From Octopus vulgaris (Eukaryota), in contig OX597816.1 in NCBI GenBank assembly GCA_951406725.2, positions 80,476,001 through 80,540,000 on the forward strand: a DNA stretch of 64,000 bases, written 5' to 3'. The position numbers were made by a program, and so were the translations under genes. Shown in pieces: positions 1,352-22,275 of the stretch. Every line of letters begins with the position of its first letter. Position 1 is the stretch's first letter. The notes below the pieces were generated by a model. It did no database searches. It was not told the DNA's origin and saw nothing but the letters and a program-made list of their open reading frames with translations.

Positions 1352-3207
1352 TATTTGTCAATATAATTTAATGAATAGAATAGCTTTTACAACAAAGCAA
1401 CCAAATGTGTATTGGTGATGTTTATTGATTAGGTTATCGATTATTTTACTGATAGGCAAGAATGAAATTGAAAGTGGATTCCTGGAGGTTCAGAGGAGGG
1501 ATTTGAACCTGTAGCATGAAGAATTGACGCTAAATATGCATAGAGATACGATTCAAAATTCTAGTGTTTTAGATCCCATACTCTTTCTTTTAAAAATGAA
1601 GTAAAGAGCTGGGAGACACGAAGAAATACCACTCTCTAAATGAATTAAATACGAGATCTAGTTTTTAATCGCAAATGCCACAGTTGCCTTTGGAAAAGAC
1701 ATGGCTACTACACAAACTAATTTTTATTCCCTAAAATTAATAGCCTACTGCATCTGAGAAACACTAGCCCTTGAATTTACACATTATGTCAGAGAAAAAC
1801 AATTTATTTCAAGAGATATCTAATTACGAGTGTTATATCATTTACGGGCCATTTACTTTGGCAGACATATTTTAGTTGATTGTCTTGTAAAATCCTGACC
1901 ATTATCATTGTAATATATTAATTATCATGACTGAACGCTGTCTATCCGCCAACAATAAAGTCGATCTAATTCGTTTATGGTGTTTTACTTTTTGTCTGTT
2001 CTCTTAAGTAGGGGAAGTATTGTTGTGGAATTGCTATGCGCAACTAAAGTATCAAGCGTTAGAAAAGTTTACTAATATAGGCTGGCATATGTACACGAGT
2101 AGTTACTGTAGCAGTTCATATGAGAAACAGGACGTTGCGGCTGTGATGTTTCAAAATTGAACTGAAGTCATTTCAAGCAGCCTGCAAAACAAATATTTCA
2201 TTCCTCCCTAGCCTAAATTATAAGGCTTTCTGCTTAGCCCTATAATTTCCTTAGGTTGAGAGACAGAAAAGTTGAGTAACCAAACAAAGCGATCTAATGC
2301 ATTTTCATTTGTCGTAATAGAAATACTACGTACTTCATTTTTAGTTCTTCTTAAAATAATAATAAATTGTATCCTAGACAAGTACTGTACTTAGATAAAT
2401 CGAAAGCACATTGCTGCTAAGACGTGTGACTAAATACTAAAGTTAGAAATAATTTTTATTTAGTTCTGTTCAGACGTGAGCCTAATTATTATATGAATGC
2501 ACAAAGCAGTGGAAAAGCAAGGGTAATGTAATGAATTGCTTAAAGTTTTTACTTACGCCCCTTTCAGTTCTGAAGTAAAATTACGTTGAGAGGCTTTGCC
2601 TATCATGTTCTACGATTGACACTGCATCGTCACATATTGAATAAATGACCTGCCAAATTGCTCGGATAACCTTTCCCACTCATATTCAATGTATCCATGT
2701 GTATAAAACCTACCCGTACAACATCAAAAATACATACAGTTGTTAAAATACTGCATCCCATAACAAATTCCTACATTGTTAATTCCACATTTTACCCCAT
2801 CTCTCCTTTTTTTTTTCTTTAGTCAAAAATATGTCGACTAAGGAGATCATGGCCTGCTAGAAATAACTGCCAGCCGGGTGGCTCTCCCTCAGATCAAAAT
2901 ATACTGACTTAAATAAAAGGAGAAATATTGGATGGTGTTATCCTTTATATTCGAAAAGAAAGGATGGTCATAGCAGTAAGGATTTTGCTGATTGAACTGC
3001 TTAATGAAGATGGCCAGAGAATAAGAATCTACAACTGATACCTTTGCGCTTTGTACAGCATCGAACTAAATGCGAAAAATGACAACGTATATAACTGTCA
3101 TGTAATACTTATTTGAATTTCATTCTCAACATTCACAGTGTTGTTCATGCTGAACTCGATTGTCGTATTGCGTTTCACGAGGCCAACAATTTTGGAGAAA
3201 GAGGAAA

Positions 3208-3793
<586 letters not shown>

Positions 3794-3834
3794 CGTTTAA
3801 TATTGTTTAATATTGTTTAACATTGTTAATAATT

Positions 3835-4520
3835 TTTCAGATACTCTATCTTCTAATTAGCCTTAAGAATAAACGACGTTATTTACCCACACTTTAACAT
3901 CTTCTAATTTTTTACCCACACTCTAATATCTTCTAATTAGCCTTTTTACCCACATTTTAAATATTTGTTAATATATTTTCAGATACTCTATCCTCTAATT
4001 AGCCTTAAGATTAAATAACGTTTTTACCCACACTTTAACTTTTTCACCCACACTTTAATATATTTTTGAATACTGTATCTTCTAATTAGCCTTAAGATTA
4101 AATAACGTTTTTTACCCACACTTTAATATAATAGTAATATTGTTAACATATTTTCAGATACTCTATCTCCTAATTAGCCTTAAGATTAAATAACGTTTTT
4201 ACCCACAAACTTTAATATTGTTAATATTAATAATACTCTATCCTCTAATTAGCCTTAAGATTAAATAACGTTTTTACCCACACTTTAACATTTTTACCCA
4301 CACTTTAATATATTTTTGAATACTCTATCTTCTAATTAGCCTTAAGATTAAAAAAAACGTTTTTACCCACACTCTAATATAATATTAATATTGCTAATAT
4401 ATTTTCAGATACTCTATCTCCTAATTAGCCTTAAGATTAAATAACGTTTTTACCCACAAACTTTAATATTGTTAATATTTTTTTTCTTTTCAAATACTCT
4501 ATCTTCTAATTAGCCTTAAT
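3835..4520 (+). repeat. Tandem array in the putative 5' UTR of copy A: ~57-bp core plus AT-rich linker, with a ~250-bp higher-order duplication
   Basis: The core atactctatcttctaattagccttaagattaaataacgtttttacccacactttaa starts at ~3841, 3983, 4070, 4158, 4233, 4320 and 4409, with partial copies at ~3926 and 4494. Units at 3983-4232 recur at 4233-4493. Confidence 0.92.
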
Positions 4521-4580
4521 ATCTTCTTGTCTTCTCTCGAACATAGTTAGATAGATAAACAAATAGACAGATCATCCAGC

Positions 4581-5491
4581 ATGTCCAGAGCATGGAGACC
4601 TGACGAACTAGATTTATTCGTACGAGCCTGGAAGTGCGCCGACGGAGATAGCCCTAGCGAGGTGATTGCGGCTGCGCTGAAGAACAAAGGCTACAAGAGG
4701 ACAGCGGCTCAGATGGAGCGAAAGAGACGGGAATTCGTGCGCTCATATGCGCTTATACGGTCGCACATTGGCGCACTTGATGCCATCTTTGAGAACGAGC
4801 GGGGCAAAGATGGCAAGAATGGAGACGATGAAAGAAGTCACCCCCACCTGGTAGACGCCCGGGAGGAGGTTTTGAATGAGAAACCTGCCCGGGAAGTGAA
4901 CCCAGGAGCAAGTTCTCCAACCGGCAGCAAGGGCCATGGAGACGGAGAACCCGGTGAAGAGGTAGAGGGAGGAGGAAGAACTAAAAGAAGGGCTGGAAGA
5001 GCTAAAGGAAAAGAAAAGCTCAAGCAGGACCAAAGGGTGAAAAAACCAGGAATAGAAGTGGAACCGCAAAAGATGGAAACAAACAGCGCACACGGGTGTG
5101 TAGGTTCTACCTGAGAGGTTCCTGCTGGCATGGAAAGGAAGGTGCAGGCTGCCGCTTTGCACATCGGGGACCCTGCCACAGAGACACGAGGCAGATGGAC
5201 AAACCATCAACACAAGGAAAAGAAATGGACCACGCACCACTTGCCCCAAAGCGGAGGTACGCAGATGTTGTGCGTGCCACAAACCGCCAACATGATGTTG
5301 TCGAAAGGGCAGCTGCTGAGCAACAATCATTTTTGTGCATGGCACAAAAGATTGTACAGCAGCTGACCTGGCTTTATCAAACCCAAGCCCGCAGGTGGGA
5401 CTACCCACTATATACCAGACCACCACAGCAAACAGACCCAGGATGGACACCGCCGGCAACAACGTACACCTCACCTCGATGCTCCTACTGA
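4581..5491 (+). CDS. LINE ORF1, copy A: trihelix Myb/SANT-like domain, charged linker and CCCH zinc finger; one frameshift near 5007-5020
   Basis: N-terminus W-x3-E-L...IAAALKNKGYKRTAAQMERK matches the GT-1/Myb_DNA-bind_4-like pattern. CRFYLRGSCWHGKEGAGCRFAH is C-x7-C-x8-C-x3-H. The two track ORFs join if one A is restored in ggaaaagaaaag, and the result is collinear with copy B. Confidence 0.8.
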
Positions 5492-8346
5492 ACATCAGAG
5501 GACTGCAAACACTCAGTAACAGGACAAAGATCCCGTTCCTGAGAGACTTTGTTGCATGCAATCAAGCCTTATGCATAGCACTTACAGAAACGCACCTGAA
5601 ACCGGACATAGCAGATGCGGAGTTACACATACCACAGTATGCTGTACTACGGACCGACAGGAAAGAAAGGAGTCATGGAGGTGTTGCTATGTACATCCGG
5701 GAGGACCTCACACCCCAGGTCCTCTTGTCATACTCAAACTCGGTGTGTGACACACTAATTGTACATATTAGGCAACTTGATGTAGTTGTGTGTGCTACAT
5801 ATCGCCCTCCAGATGCCCCAAGCCATGTGGGCAAGTTTGAAGACTGCCTTATAAAAATAGAAGAAATTCTAACCACATTAGAACAACACATAGGTGTGCT
5901 TCTTATGGGAGACTTCAATCTGCCCAATGTCAGATGGCCCGAGGGCCTTTCTCTCCCAGGAATGACAAGATGTGAACGAGGACAGGCGAGGTCCCTCCTG
6001 AACCTCATCAACACCCTGTACATGGAGCAGGTAATACTCCAACCAACCAGGGCAGGTAACACACTGGATCTCTGCTTCACAAATGACATGGATCTCATCC
6101 ATAATGTGAAAGTGACACCGACACTACTCTCGGATCACAACATGATAGAGCTGACCATGTACGGGCCAAAAGAGAGCACGGACATGCAGCCTACAAGAAA
6201 CCCTCAGAATCTTTCCAGCTTGAACTACCATAAGGCAAACTGGAAACAAATTGAGAAAGAGATCCTCAAACAAAACTGGCCTAAATGTCTCTCCTCGCCA
6301 GACATCGACGTGAAACTTCAACAATTCATGTCTGTAATGCAAGCCATATGCTACAAATGTGTCCCAGAGAGAAAGGCCACTGTACACAAGAACAAAATCC
6401 CCAGAGAGAGGAAAATTTTAATGAGACGGCGTACAAAATTTTCAAATCGCCTAAACAAACAGATTGAAAGCAGTGAAAAGTCCCGCCTAAAAATAAAACT
6501 GTTGGAAATCGAAAAATGTCTGCAACTCTCCCATGAAAAAGAAAGAGCAGACAAAGAAGCCTGGGCTATAGAAAACATAAAATCTAACCCCAGAGCTTTC
6601 TACAGGTATGCCAAAGAAACAGCTACAGTGCACTGTAGAATAGGGCCACTCCTCGAAAAGGATGGCACACTTACAGGAAAACCAATGAGGGTAAGTGAAA
6701 TACTGAATGAGCAATTCAAGAGTGTTTTCACTCCACCCCTTGGGCATCTCCAAATCACCAATCCAACTGACTTTTTTACCACTGCAGATATAAAATCAGA
6801 GGCGGCGACGATAGATTACATCGATATAAAGGAAGACGATGTAACCAAGGCTATAGATGAAATGAAAACAGACTCAGCTACTGGCCCCGATGGATTCCCG
6901 GCAATCCTCCTAAAAGCATGTAAGAGAGTCCTAGCAAGACCACTGCAGTTCCTCTTTCAGAGCTTCCTTGCAGCTGGCAAACTTCCAGGAAAACTGAAGG
7001 AAGGTAAAATATGCCCCATTCATAAAGGAGGTAGCAGAGCAGAAGCCAAGAACTATAGACCTATCTCTCTGACCTCACACATCAGCAAGGTCATGGAACG
7101 AATAGTCAGAAGGAAGCTGATCACCTTCCTTGAAGAGAATGACTTGCTGCCCGACACCCAACATGGTTTCCGACCAGGGAGAAGCTGTTTAACTCAGCTC
7201 CTACAACACTATGACTGGGTGCTGAAACGGCTGCTCAACCACTCAAATGTGGAAGTGATATATCTCGACTTTGCAAAGGCCTTTGATAAAGTCGATCATG
7301 GAATGATATGTCACAAACTGCATGATCTCAACATAGTTGGAAAACTGGGAGAATGGCTTCATGACTTTCTGAAGGATAGAAGTCAGGTGGTAGTAGCCAA
7401 TGGGGCCACCTCCATTAACACACAAATAGTGAGCGGTGTTCCGCAGGGCACTGTTCTGGGACCACTACTGTTCATAATGGCCCTCTCAGACATGCCCTCA
7501 GCCACGCAGAGAGCCACGATCACAAGTTATGCAGATGATACAAAAGTTTCACAGGCAATACAGAACCCTGAGGACACTAAACACCTGCAATGTGAGCTGG
7601 ACGAAATATACAAGTGGGCTGAAAAGAATAGCATGCAGTTCAATGCTGGAAAGTTTCAAGCTTTATACTATCAGCATGCAAAACTGAATGCAATACCCAA
7701 TGAATACACTGGACCCGGAGGGATTGCAATCCCAGAGGCACAATCAGTGCGTGACCTGGGTATTCACATGAGTGATGACGCGACCTTTCATGTACATGTT
7801 GCTAAACTGACAATGAAATGTAGACGGCTGGCTGGATGGATTCTTAGAACCTTTAGAACAAGAGAACAAGAAACCATGATGGTCCTCTGGAAGACACTTG
7901 TCCTAAGCCACTTTGACTACTGCTCTCAGTTATGGTCACCATCCAGTGTCAAGTTGATCACAGAGCTCGAGGCGATCCAACGTAGATATGCAATAATATA
8001 CATCTGGAAGATCCTGGAGGGACGTGTCCTGAACTTTGGCATCGAGAGTTACGCAAATGCCAGAACTGGGCGCCACTGCGTGGTGCCTAGGACTCCAAAC
8101 CTGCCATCAAGATGTAGGACAAGATTCTGTGATAGCCTGGGCTTCCGAGGCCCACAGCTCTTCAATATCCTCCCGAAGAACCTGAGAGACCTGCATGGGG
8201 TGGATACAGATGTCTTTAAAATGAAGCTGGATCTCTTCCTGTCAGGTGTCCCAGATGAACCAACTTCACGGCAGGAGGGGCAGATGAGGGCAGCTGCATC
8301 GAACTCTCTCATGCACCAAATAGCAGTTGCTAGAAAGCCTCCATGA
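5443..8346 (+). CDS. LINE ORF2, copy A: AP endonuclease plus reverse transcriptase, with an in-frame 93-nt deletion near the C-terminus
   Basis: APE motifs LNIRGL, LTETHL, YRPP, GDFN, LDL, SDH. RT motifs [41 protein letters not shown]. First ATG at 5443; the track start at 5335 is GTG. Confidence 0.95.
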
Positions 8347-8372
8347 AGTGAAACCAAGTAGCAACACCAAAT

Positions 8373-8434
8373 GGCGGTGCCCCAGCATGGCCACAGCTCA
8401 TAAGCTGAAACTAGAATCAATCAATCAATCAATC
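8373..8434 (+). other. LINE 3' tail: conserved box, CAGCT-cata-AGCTG stem-loop and (AATC)5
   Basis: Hairpin at 8394-8407; nearly identical in copy B (12238-12299). Confidence 0.7.
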
Positions 8435-8445
8435 ATATACATATA

Positions 8446-8501
<56 letters not shown>

Positions 8502-8730
8502 TATACACATACATATATATACATATATATACATATATACATATATATACATATATACATATATATACATATATACATATATATACATATATACACATAT
8601 ATACATATATATACATATATATATATATACATATATATATATACATATATACATATATACATATATACATATATACATATATATATATACATATACATAT
8701 ATATACATATATACATATATACATATATAT

Positions 8731-8826
<96 letters not shown>
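8435..8826. repeat. (TA)n/(TATACA)n microsatellite, 3' flank of copy A
   Basis: Visible directly. Confidence 0.95.
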
Positions 8827-11846: not shown

Positions 11847-11877
<31 letters not shown>

Positions 11878-11906
11878 GTATGTGTATATATATATATATA
11901 TATATG

Positions 11907-11967
<61 letters not shown>

Positions 11968-11990
11968 ATATATATATATATATGTATGTG

Positions 11991-12021
<31 letters not shown>

Positions 12022-12148
12022 GTATGTGTATATATATATATATGTATGTGTATATATATATATTATATGTATGTGTATTATATATATATATATGTATGTG
12101 TATATATATATATATATATGTATGTGTATATATATATATATATATATG

Positions 12149-12237
<89 letters not shown>
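11657..12237. repeat. (TA)n/(TATG) microsatellite, 3' flank of copy B
   Basis: Visible directly. Confidence 0.95.
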
Positions 12238-12240
<3 letters not shown>

Positions 12241-12325
12241 TGATTGATTGATTGATTCCAGTTTCAGCTTATGAGCTGTGGCCATGCTGGGGCACCGCCA
12301 TTTGGTGTTGCTACTTGGTTTCACT

Positions 12326-15321
12326 TCATGGAGGCTTTCTAGCAACTGCTATTTGGTGCATGAGAGAGTTCGATGCAGCTGCCCTCATCTGCCCCTCCTG
12401 CCGTGAAGTTGGTTCATCTGGGACACCTGACAGGAAGAGATCCAGCTCCATTTTAAAGACATCTGTATCCACCCCATGCAGGTCTCTCAGGTTCATCGGG
12501 AGGATATTGAAGAGCTGTGGGCCTCGGAAGCCCAGGCTATCACAGAATCTTGTCCTACATCTTGATGGCAAGTTTGGAGTCCTAGGCACCACGCAGTGGC
12601 GCCCAGGTCTGGCGTTTGCGTAACTCTCGATGCCACAGTTCAGGACACTTCCCTCCAGGATCTTCCAGATGTATATTATGGCATATCTTTCCCGCCTACG
12701 CTCCAGGGAATATAATTTTAATCTCTTGAGTCTTTCCCAGTAGCTTACATTCTGCATAGAGGCTATCTTCTTCGTGTAGCTTCGTTGGATCGCCTCAAGT
12801 TCTGTGATCAACTTGACACTGGATGGTGACCATAGCTGAGAGCAATAGTCAAAGTGACTTAGGACAAGTGTCTTCCAGAGGACCATCATGGTTTCTTGTT
12901 CTCTTGTTCTAAAGGTTCTAAGAATCCAGCCAGCCAGCCGTCTGCATTTCATTGTCAGTTTAGCAACATGTACATGAAAGGTCGCGTCATCAGTCATGTG
13001 AATACCCAGGTCACGCACTGATTGTGCCTCTGGGATTGCAATCCCTCCGGGTCCAGTGTATTCCTTGGGTATTGCATTCAGTTTTGCATGCTGATAGTAT
13101 AAAGCTTGAAACTTTTCAGCATTGAACTGCATGCTATTCTTTTCAGCCCACTTGTATATTTCGTCCAGCTCATATTGCAGGTGCCTAGTGTCTTCAGGGT
13201 TCTGTATTGCCTGTGAAACTTTTGTATCATCTGCATAACTTGTGATCGTGGCTCTCCGCGTGGCTGAGGGCATGTCTGAGAGGGCCATTATGAACAGTAG
13301 TGGTCCCAAAACAGTGCCCTGTGGAACACCGCTCACTATTTGCGTGCTAATGGAAGTGGCCCCATTGGCTACTACCACCTGACTTCTATTCTTCAGAAAG
13401 TCGTGAAGCCATTCTCCTAGTTTTCCAACTATGCCAAGATCACGCAGTTTGTGACATATCATTCCATGATCGACTTTATCGAAGGCCTTTGCGAAGTCGA
13501 GATATATCACTTCCACATTTGAGTGGTTGAGCAGTTGTTTCAGCACCCAGTCATAGTGCTGCAGGAGCTGAGTTAAGCAGCTTCTTCCTGGTCGGAAACC
13601 ATGTTGGGTGTCAGGCAGCAAGTCATTTTCTTCAAGGAAGGTGATTAGTTTCCTTCTGACTATTCGTTCCATGACCTTGCTGATGTGTGAGGTCAGAGAG
13701 ATAGGTCTGTAGTTCTTGGCCTCCGCTCTGCTACCTCCTTTATGAATAGGGCATATTTTACCTTCCTTCAGTTTTCTTGGAAGTTTGCCAGCTGCAAGGA
13801 AGCTCTGAAAGAGGAACTGCAGTGGTCTTGCTAAGACTCTCTTACATACTTTTAGGAGGATTGCCGGGAATCCATCGGGGCCAATAGCTGAGTCTATTTT
13901 CATTTCATCTATAGCCTTTATTACATCGTCTTCCTTTATATCGATGTAATTTAACGTCGCCGCCTCTGATTCTATATCTGCAGTGGTAAAAAAGTCAGTT
14001 GGATTGCTGATTTGGAAATGCCCAAGGGGTGGAGTTAAAACACTCTTGAATTGTTCATTCAGTATTTCACTTACCCTCATTGGTTTTCCTGTGAGTGTGC
14101 CATCCTTTTCAAGGAGTGGCCCTATCCTACAGTGCACCGTAGCTGTTTCTTTGGCATACCTGTAGAAAGCTCTGGGGTTAGTTTTTATGTTGTCTATAGC
14201 CCAGGCTTCTTTGTCTGCTCTATCCTTCTCATGGGAGAGTTGCAGACAATTTTCAATTTCCAACAGTTTTATTTTCAGGCGGGACTTTTCACTGCTTTCA
14301 ATTTGTTTGTTTAGGCGATTTGAGATTTTTGTGCGCCGTCTCATTAAAATTTTTCTCTCTCTGGGGATTTTGTTCTTGTGTACAGTGGCCTTTCTCTCTG
14401 GGACACATTTGTAGCATATGGATTGCATTACGGACATGAATTGTTGAAGTATCATGTCGATGTCCGGCGAGGAGAGACATTCAGGCCAGTTTTGTTTGAG
14501 GATCTCTTTCTCAATTTGTTTCCAGTTTGCCTTATTGAAGTTCAAGCTGGAAAGATTCTGAGGGTTTCTTGTAGGCTGCATGTCCGTGCTCTCTTTTGAC
14601 CCGTACATGGTCAGCTCTACCATGTTGTGATCCGAGAGTAGTGTCGGTGTCACTTTCACATTATGGATGAGATCCATATTATTTGTGAAGCAGAGATCCA
14701 GTGTGTTACCCGCTCTGGTTGGTTGGAGTATTACTTGCTCCATGTACAGGGTGTTGGTAAGGTTCAGGAGGGACCTCGCCTGTCCTCGTTCACATCTTGT
14801 CATTCCTGGGAGAGAAAGGCCCTCGGGCCATCTGACATTCGGTAGATTGAAGTCTCCCATGAGAAGTACACTTATGTGTTGTTCTAATGTGGTTAGAACT
14901 TCTTCTATTTTTAAAAGGCAGTCCTCAAACTTGCCCATATGACTTGGGGCATCTGGAGGGCGATATGTAGCACACACAACTACATCAAGTTGCCTTATGT
15001 GTACAATTAGTGTGTCACACACCGAGTTTGAGTATGACAAAAGGACCTGGGGTTTGAGGTCCCCACGGATGTACATAGCAACTCCTCCATGACTTCTTTC
15101 TTTCCTGTCGGTCCGTAGTACAACATACTGTGGTATGTGTAATTCCGCATCTGCTATGTCCGGTTTCAGATGCGTTTCTGTGAGTGCTATGCATAGGCTT
15201 GATTGCATGCGACAAAGTCTCTCAGGAACGGGACTTTTGTCCTGTTACTGAGTGTTTGCAGTCCTCTGATGTTCAGTAGGAGCATCGAGGTGAGGTGTAC
15301 GTTGTTGCCGGCGGTGTCCAT
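12326..15321 (-). pseudogene. LINE ORF2, copy B (APE+RT), complete length but with a 1-nt deletion near 15193
   Basis: Nearly identical to copy A ORF2. Copy A gccttatgc versus copy B gcctatgc splits it into the 80-aa and 960-aa track ORFs. It retains YWERLKRLKLYSLERRRER. Confidence 0.9.
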
Positions 15322-16164
15322 CCTGGGTCTGTTTGCTGTGGTGGTCTGGTATATAGTGGGTAGTCCCACCTGCGGGCTTGGGTTTGATAAAGCCAGGTCA
15401 GCTGCTGTACAATCTTTTGTGCCATGCACAAAAAAGATTCCTGCTCAGCAGCTGCCCTTTCAACAACACGTTGGTGGTTTGTGGTACGCACCACATCTGC
15501 GTACCTCCGTTTTGGGGCCGGTGATGCGTAGTCCATCCCATTTCCTTTCGGTGGTTGGTTTCTGTGGCAGGGTCCCGGATGTGCAAAGCGGCAGCCTGCA
15601 CCTTCCTCTCCATGCCGGCAGGCACCTTTCAGGTAGAACCTACATACCCGTGTGCGCTGCTTGTTTCCATCCTTTTTGGCATATGGACAGTTAGGTTTGC
15701 CTCTATCCCTGGCTGCCTTGCCCCTTGGCTTTGTCTGAGTTTTAGCTTTAGTTTTTCCTCTTTTTTTTGGCCTCTCCATCTCCATGTCCATGGCTTTTGG
15801 TGCCGGTAGGAGCATCCGTACCTGGGTTCACCTCCCGGGCAGGCCTCTCGTTGGAGTTTTCTTCCTGGGCGTCCACCAGGTGGGGGTGACCCTCCTCATC
15901 TGCGCCCGCGTCTCCATCCTTGCCATCTTTACTTTGTTCGCGTTTTTCGCTGTTAAAAATGGCATCCAGTGTGTTTATGTGCGATCTTACAAGTGCGTAT
16001 GAGCGTACGAACTCTTGCCTCTTCCGCTCTATTTGTGCTGACGTCCTTTTGAATCCTTTGTTCCTTAGTGCTGCCGCAATTACGTTACTTGGACTTTCTC
16101 CGTCAGCGCATTGCCATCCTCGTAGGAACCACGACAGTTCATCACGTTTCCAAGCTCTGGACAT
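15273..16164 (-). CDS. LINE ORF1, copy B (trihelix Myb/SANT-like plus CCCH), frameshifted at an A8 run (15761-15768)
   Basis: MSRAWKRDEL...IAAALRNKGFKRTSAQIERK and CRFYLKGACRHGEEGAGCRFAH; removing one A joins the 138-aa and 180-aa ORFs. Confidence 0.8.
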
Positions 16165-16449
16165 TCTTGATATATTATCTATCTATCTAATTATGTTAAG
16201 TTATATTAATCCAATAGTAGGGGGTAATAGAGAAAGAGAGCGTCCGTGCACTTAAGGAGAGATTGGGAGCCAAGAGAAGAGAGCAAGAGAGAAGAGGAAG
16301 AGGAGATACTGAGTGCTGAAGGAAGATAGAGAAAGCCTCTATGCCCTCAGAGAGAGATTGAGAGCTGAGAGAGGAGAGCTGAGACAGACAGAGAAGCGCA
16401 AGGGAGAGAACCGAAGAGACAGACAGAGAGATCTGAAGAGACAGATCTC

Positions 16450-17312
<863 letters not shown>

Positions 17313-21924: not shown

Positions 21925-22275
21925 AGCTGAACCGCATCATTCTTGTCCCATAAAGGGGTAGATATATCAGGATACGGCTCGTATCGTGACATTAGCCTGA
22001 TGTCATGCTCAGCCAAACTCTTTAACCGTATCATGTTCAGTCGAATCGGAGACTCTATCGAAACAGTGCTCAGATCAAACCAATACCGTTTCGTAAAGGC
22101 CGCTCCACCCTTGAAGGTATTTTGACTCATTAAAACATCTCAATGAAGAAAGATACGTCTTTGTGCGCCATCTTTGTAGATTTTGCCAAAGCTTTTGACT
22201 CGGTTCTATAGCGAGCAAATGTTTCAGATATTCTTTGCCTTAGGCATAACGAATGAAATTGTAAATGTCATCCAC
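21925..22275 (+). pseudogene. Degraded RTE-type RT fragment, opposite strand
   Basis: KG...YRDISLMSCSAKLFNRIMFSRI...LRSNQYRF, then AIFVDFAKAFDSV and MFQIFFALGITNEIVNVI. Confidence 0.75.

Follow-up and report, generated by a model that had tools for sequence, protein, structure and literature searches.

Two facing LINE copies in a microsatellite-rich window

The window that we analysed, a microsatellite-rich stretch of 64,000 nt of the Octopus vulgaris genome, contains two LINE copies that face one another 3.8 kb apart, copy 1 on the forward strand (about 3795–8435) and copy 2 on the reverse strand (about 16450–12240). Both are full-length, frameshifted LINEs with an endonuclease and a reverse transcriptase (RT), and each is organized as a 5′ UTR, ORF1, an ORF2 that overlaps ORF1, and an (AATC)n tail. 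In copy 1, an AT-rich 5′ UTR (3795–4580, forward strand) with tandem units of ~89 nt and ~251 nt precedes ORF1 (4581–5491); ORF2, encoding the AP endonuclease and RT, runs from a candidate ATG at 5443 to 8346, and the 3′ UTR (8347–8435) has (AATC)n at its end. In copy 2, all on the reverse strand, the 5′ UTR (16165–16450) is CT-rich, ORF1 occupies 15273–16164, and ORF2 occupies 12326–15321, its start set by alignment to copy 1 and its frame broken once, by one base, near 15200. Four further observations concern the surroundings of these frames. The ~89-nt units of the copy 1 5′ UTR form an array (3795–4520) that resembles monomer-type LINE promoters; the last 49 nt of ORF1 (5443–5491), which overlap the candidate ORF2 start, are identical in both copies; copy 1 ORF2 has an in-frame deletion of ~93 nt near 7988, in a segment kept in all relatives inspected; and small, old ORF2 fragments from other LINEs lie at 53–244 and 22089–22205 of the window.

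ORF2 identifies both copies as APE-type LINEs, with Exo_endo_phos_2 (E 5e-12) and RVT_1 (E 1e-30) both above their cut-offs and L1 ORF2p as the nearest solved protein. CR1-group elements have an ORF2 without RNase H and a short tandem repeat at the 3′ end, and both features are found here: ORF2 matches three Pfam families only, RNase H not among them, and the (AATC)n tails of both copies take the place of poly(A). Together with ORF2 C-terminal motifs that we take to be CR1-like, the domain content and the tail make membership of the CR1 group likely. The nearest ORF2s have RT identities of 91% (P0023), ~70% (P0024 and P0025), and 65% (P0026, a named relative from Argonauta hians). A tree of 36 RT sequences, i.e. 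both copies, 33 of the 120 homologs among the matches listed, and the metagenomic relative L001, puts both copies, P0023–P0025, and P0026 on one branch (100/100), set apart from other invertebrate relatives at 46–54% identity. Scans of viral and prokaryote contigs with ORF2 gave zero matches, and the metagenome scan gave only L001, at 31% identity and uninformative for ORF1 context. The LINE family is likely octopod.

ORF1 is a single open frame in the family

A preliminary description of copy 1, made from the letters of the sequence, had placed ORF1 at 4581–5491 and had listed five features for both copies: a Myb/SANT-like N-terminus, an acidic then basic linker, a C-x7-C-x8-C-x3-H finger, a PKRRY motif, and a Pro/Thr-rich tail. 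The boundaries are correct, enclosing 911 nt with one frameshift near 5005–5013, and the five features are found in copy 1 and copy 2 alike. In copy 1, the predicted Myb/SANT-like (trihelix-like) domain (4581–4796) leads into the linker (4797–5098), which runs from acidic to basic and contains the frameshift; the finger (5099–5164); a basic patch with Y-A-D-V-V-R (5246–5275) that is NLS-like and/or RACK1-binding-helix-like; a conserved segment, common to the homolog P0011, that is likely to form an amphipathic helix (5303–5377); and the Pro/Thr-rich tail with the stop codon (5378–5491), overlapping the start of ORF2. Copy 2 ORF1 (16164–15273, 892 nt) has its Myb-like domain at 16164–15949, its own frameshift near 15770, its finger at 15644–15579, and its YADVVR patch at 15515–15486; residues 73–130 comprise 15 D/E vs 7 K/R, residues 131–172 comprise 17 K/R vs 3 D/E, and 13 of the final 34 residues are P/T. 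Neither half of either ORF1 matches RRM, CCHC, Transposase_22, PHD, or esterase families in Pfam at E up to 10.

Is ORF1 interrupted throughout the family, or only in these copies? Each copy has one break, both in the linker, of opposite sign and at different sites. At the copy 1 break, family contigs from runs X1, X2, X3, and X11 carry an extra A behind 5013 (11, 10, 5, and 1 contigs, respectively, or 18–60% of local depth) or have 5 bases fewer at 5008 (3, 12, 9, and 1 contigs); both variants restore the open frame, and they were seen in all four runs, of which X11 is guessed to be RNA. Across the copy 2 break, P0003, a gene-model copy from Octopus sinensis, is in frame, and P0011 (371 aa; 48% identity in the N-terminal domain) has the N-terminal domain, the finger, Y-S-D-A-V-R, the C-terminal helix, and a Pro-rich tail, all in one ORF. 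From these contigs, P0003, and P0011, it follows that the family has a single open ORF1 of ~300 residues; the breaks in the two copies are either real lesions or A-run assembly errors. Programmed frameshifting is rejected, because the breaks differ in site and sign and the frame of relatives is open across each of them. As an aside, the O. sinensis LPIN3 gene model (P0003) ends in a piece of ORF1 linker, which is probably a mis-annotation or an exonisation.

Residues 1–70, searched against 1.84 billion representatives, returned 18 matches; six are named, all from Octopus (O. sinensis and O. vulgaris), and the other 12 are ENA or Logan records. The full architecture is intact in one of the 18, most records stopping before the finger. 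Harbinger elements encode Myb/SANT accessory proteins, and neither a Harbinger ORF nor another donor gene is among the 18 matches of this single-sequence search, which may not reach it. A viral-contig match, L002, was rejected as chance, being a short likeness within a 2234-aa phage protein.

The N-terminal domain and its fold

Codons 1–70 of the two copies differ at 53 nucleotides, 9, 9, and 35 of them at first, second, and third codon positions, with pS 0.68 and pN 0.125 (Fisher p 1e-13). The N-terminal domain is thus not a product of chance, since 35 of the 53 differences are third-position and pN is far below pS; it is under purifying selection. Its proposed Myb/SANT-like character stands as a domain call, backed by the top Pfam match and by fold ranks, although the sequence scores stay under the cut-offs; likewise, Pfam profile support for both this domain and the finger is real but weak, every match falling short of its cut-off. 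The top Pfam match of the N-terminal domain is Myb_DNA-bind_4 (PF13837), at E 0.0023 and 0.012 for the two copies (18.7 and 16.4 bits; the gathering score of 27 bits is reached by neither). Among 18 aligned members (both copies and 16 of the 18 matches, with P0015 and P0021 left out), 6 match the same family at E ≤ 1, the best of them at 3e-4.

An AlphaFold2 model from the 18-row alignment (pLDDT 88) has helices at residues 7–19, 25–35, and 42–60, the three-helix helix-turn-helix fold of the Myb/SANT superfamily, with moderate scores. Foldseek puts GT-1 first (2ebi; prob 1.00, TM 0.64, rmsd 2.2 over 64 columns), followed by GT-1 2jmw, RAD MYB, and DNAJC2 SANT; VIA-align, whose Z values below 8 may stem from a widespread arrangement of helices, gives its best Z, 7.2, to RAD MYB (rmsd 2.5, 58 aligned) and DNAJC2 SANT (rmsd 5.0, 68 aligned), and 6.6 to GT-1. 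The top folds of both aligners are GT-1, RAD MYB, DNAJC2 SANT, TEAD, and related domains. As zero Foldseek matches reached E 0.001 for this model and the best Z is 7.2, the Myb fold call rests on agreement between methods. The single-sequence model, made without an alignment, gave generic helical matches with Myb absent; PDB sequence profile searches likewise returned no Myb (0 matches with A2 and 4 unrelated ones with A5), and a search of the viral fold library gave nothing at E 0.001. Atlas matches for the Myb-like domain and the finger, all at or under 0.85, are leads, and those in rows 2 and 6 (0.83 and 0.80) belong to Myb families. Canonical Myb/GT-1 repeats have three regularly spaced core tryptophans. 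The ORF1 domain retains W5 and has an additional W17; the canonical positions in helices 2 and 3 are not Trp, i.e. the second and third core tryptophans are missing. One could argue from sequence scores that all lie under curated cut-offs, and from moderate fold scores, that the architecture label has been over-read and that the domain is a generic three-helix bundle unrelated to Myb, but Pfam, Foldseek, and VIA-align agree on one superfamily, and the Atlas leads in rows 2 and 6 are Myb; we consider a generic bundle very improbable and membership of the Myb/SANT superfamily very probable.

What might such a domain bind? Residues 1–75 have a basic pI (9.3–10.6) in all 7 proteins for which it was computed, and the most conserved residues, R40, Q44, R47, K48, and Y56, lie in helix 3, with conservation inflated by the picking of homologs by similarity. 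Charge and helix-3 conservation suggest that the third helix, which is long and basic, may contact DNA. A SANT-type reader of protein or chromatin (histone tails, remodellers, or ORF2) would be a different proposition. SANT entries (DNAJC2, DMAP1, ISWI, CoREST) tie or nearly tie with Myb in the fold ranks, but SANT domains that bind histones are usually acidic, and the N-terminal domain is basic. Such a reader would be the counterpart of the PHD finger found in other CR1 ORF1s, and ORF1s of the CR1/L2 group often carry PHD readers (PMC4120745); we judge it distinctly unlikely. The preferred assignment for the N-terminal domain is as a putative binder of DNA.

A CCCH finger followed by a conserved short motif

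The CCCH finger call is supported in both copies and P0011, by CCCH profiles and by MBNL1 matches. CCCH-type Pfam families reach E 9e-5 and 7e-4 at best, all below their cut-offs (zf-CCCH: 15.3 and 18.1 bits vs a gathering score of 20.5), and the finger profile matches MBNL1 fingers at E 2e-4. The spacing C-x7/8-C-x4-8-C-x3-H is present, and the finger is intact in P0011; in P0007 it has decayed, with two cysteines lost. A loose CCCH pattern occurs at 10 places in the six frames of the window, two of them the ORF1 fingers; the other eight were dismissed as Cys/Val-rich translations of simple repeats. Of the 32 candidates that a search with the finger profile scored, three were returned: P0007, P0011, and an unrelated protein with several fingers. 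Between copies, the finger has pS 0.08 and pN 0.06 (p 0.67); selection is not significant here because the copies are too similar in this region for it to be visible. Like an MBNL1-type finger, the ORF1 finger opens with C-x7-C spacing and closes with CRFAHP; MBNL fingers come in tandem pairs, whereas the octopus ORF1 has a single finger with an x8 second spacing. Tandem CCCH fingers may be present in the ORF1s of related CR1 elements from marine invertebrates. By its likeness to MBNL1, the finger likely binds RNA.

This assignment bears on a further reading of the N-terminal domain, namely that it is a general nucleic-acid chaperone or an RNA-binding/oligomerisation module in place of an RRM, with TA targeting set by ORF2. 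An ORF1 that lacks RRM, CCHC, and Transposase_22 needs some module for packaging, and the fold matches include, at VIA-align rank 27, the Myb-like Cdc5, whose entry title gives it two surfaces that bind nucleic acid. RNA binding could, however, be covered by the finger and basic linker, and the top fold matches are mostly DNA-binding domains. We rate this chaperone role as unlikely, if worth keeping in mind, and continue to favor DNA binding by the Myb-like domain and RNA binding by the finger.

The PKRRY motif, first described as NLS-like, is indeed in both copies, but PKRR is not conserved, being PRKY in P0011 and RQKSY in P0007. What is conserved after the finger is a Y-[AS]-D-x-V core, near which a nuclear-import role for basic residues is possible. 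Both copies (5258–5275 in copy 1) and P0011 have Y-x3-V-R, and P0007 has Y-x3-V-Q. RACK1-binding helices, a motif defined by binding to RACK1 blades 5–6, are described in ZAK (Y611, V615, R616; PMC12823453) and in LARP4 CR2 (YAEVC; PMC11565960, also PMC13293227), and their spacing is the same as in ORF1 Y-x3-V-R, a likeness of six residues across four ORF1 sequences. We offer a RACK1-binding-helix-like role for this patch as a lead only. Short motifs like Y-x3-V-R are common in LINE ORF1s, and similar motifs of other LINEs might by analogy share a RACK1-type role.

Mosaic divergence and (TA)n flanks

Divergence between the copies is uneven along the element. At silent sites, pS is 0.68 (95% 0.51–0.87) in the Myb region, 0.48 in the linker block, 0.08 in the finger, 0.05 in the tail, and 0.10–0.15 in four ORF2 blocks; the 5′ UTRs of copies 1 and 2 are unalignable, the best UTR-to-UTR match being 18 nt. 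The 5′ module (4581–4800 vs 16164–15950) has about five times the silent-site divergence of ORF2. The simplest reading of this pattern is that the 5′ UTR and the Myb module were swapped between subfamilies and that the junction lies immediately upstream of the finger; if gene conversion had afterwards homogenized the 3′ parts, an identical pattern would result. The run contigs have loose ends near 5373 and 5536, a sign of more subfamilies with different ORF1 tails.

Why would a promoter and a Myb module travel together? One answer is that the Myb-like domain binds the promoter in its own 5′ UTR, activating or repressing its own element. The UTR and the Myb region do diverge together, pS falling from 0.68 and 0.48 to 0.08 and 0.10–0.15, the tandem units of the copy 1 UTR could offer repeated sites for such binding, and Harbinger Myb proteins bind the ends of their own element. 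A template switch upstream of the finger, however, replaces the UTR and Myb region by position alone, and helix 3 is nearly identical between the copies despite UTRs with almost nothing in common. Binding to the element's own promoter is to us a doubtful explanation, and binding of AT-rich target DNA is the role that we prefer for the domain.

Candidate target DNA adjoins both elements. (TA)n tracts abut 4 of 4 ends of the two copies: 3205–3796 and 8428–8821 at the 5′ and 3′ ends of copy 1, and 16444–17236 and 11859–12246 at the 5′ and 3′ ends of copy 2. Outside the elements, 10% of the window is TA tract (4.6% in 18001–64000), and at these values two independent insertions into TA would be a 0.2–1% event; the surroundings of the copies are TA-denser, however, and the count is of two insertions, 3.8 kb apart. 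The flanks favor a TA preference and are silent on the responsible protein; the ORF2 endonuclease, the tail, tolerance, or a later expansion of the tracts could equally account for it. From these two insertions comes indirect support for the earlier suggestion that ORF1 bridges DNA and RNA and could tether the LINE particle to target DNA.

Relation to known ORF1 types

CR1/L2-lineage ORF1s have been sorted into types I–V (Khazina and Weichenrieder; Metcalfe and Casane 2014, PMC4120745). The octopus LINE resembles these elements in having two ORFs, an APE with RT, and an ORF1 that is modular and exchangeable, and it resembles the PHD-containing types in placing an N-terminal reader-like domain before the RNA-binding part; it differs in that its ORF1 would count as type V (unclassified). 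The architecture had been at risk of already being catalogued for the clade, and in the part of Metcalfe and Casane available, it is not: Myb/SANT and CCCH are absent from the 448 Jockey-group ORF1s of Table 1, the modules of which are PHD, RRM, CCHC, Tnp22, esterase, coiled coil, and zf/lz only (PMC4120745). The same source proposes genome targeting for the PHD in CR1 ORF1 and stresses domain shuffling, and a new ORF1 module is thus within expectation.

Comparison with other Myb-containing proteins is also instructive. The GT-1 trihelix (PF13837), a group to which Harbinger accessory proteins belong, is the best Foldseek match and shares three helices with a long third, but identity is ~19%, two canonical tryptophans are missing, and the search of 1.84 billion representatives brought up no donor gene. 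Among non-LTR retrotransposons, Myb domains occur in R2 and TRAS, with target-site recognition in repeats used or proposed; the R2 Myb is used in target-site recognition. In both, the domain is part of the RT protein (R2, PMC11204384; TRAS, where it is proposed to aid telomere targeting, PMC5537684), whereas in the octopus LINE it is GT-1-like and is found with a CCCH finger in a separate ORF1.

A literature search, in which subscription papers were mostly outside coverage, found no Myb-plus-CCCH ORF1 type for LINEs. PMC5203782 does not mention Myb, SANT, or CCCH; PMC11203168 has neither Myb nor CCCH; PMC9115989 has neither CR1 nor Myb; and PMC13343379 lacks terms for such an ORF1 architecture. 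PMC2868851 was set aside as a precedent, its TRF1-Myb fusions being engineered and not natural ORF1s. For O. vulgaris, 169 CR1 families appear in the repeat annotation, with ORF1 notes absent from the accessible part (PMC13282606), and the supplement of that paper contains none of ORF1, Myb, and CCCH; Table 1 of that paper gives 13 recently active CR1 families with 787 insertions. Given the 169 annotated families, the LINE family is probably catalogued as DNA. Within the literature searched, an ORF1 that pairs a Myb-like domain with a CCCH finger is apparently undescribed.

Proposed mechanism and outlook

In our best reading, to which we give a probability of about 0.45, the ORF1 protein holds its own RNA by the finger and the basic linker and AT-rich target DNA by the Myb-like domain. 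The finger and basic linker would grip the element RNA; the Myb-like domain would hold AT-rich DNA, for example (TA)n tracts; the particle would thereby be delivered to TA tracts, where ORF2 would nick and prime on the (AATC)n tail; and template switching would exchange the 5′ UTR and Myb module among subfamilies. A more elaborate version extends ORF1-guided targeting to octopod CR1-group LINEs as a set, with ribosome docking through the RACK1-type helix, RNA capture by the CCCH finger, guidance to (TA)n by the Myb domain, and a promoter-plus-Myb cassette that is swapped; in such a LINE, DNA reading in ORF1, and not the ORF2 protein, would set the target choice. Taken whole, this version is rather improbable.

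Little is settled about ORF1 function in LINEs other than L1, and ORF1 modules are known to be exchanged. Here, a likely DNA-binding domain, selection on that domain, a swap point, and a candidate target come together in one element, and they offer a small and direct test of whether ORF1 steers. If ORF1 does steer insertion, LINE-based insertion tools would gain a separable targeting module. Even if ORF1 does not steer, the catalogue of ORF1 types has a new entry; if it does, such steering may help to explain how LINEs and microsatellites have shaped octopus genomes.
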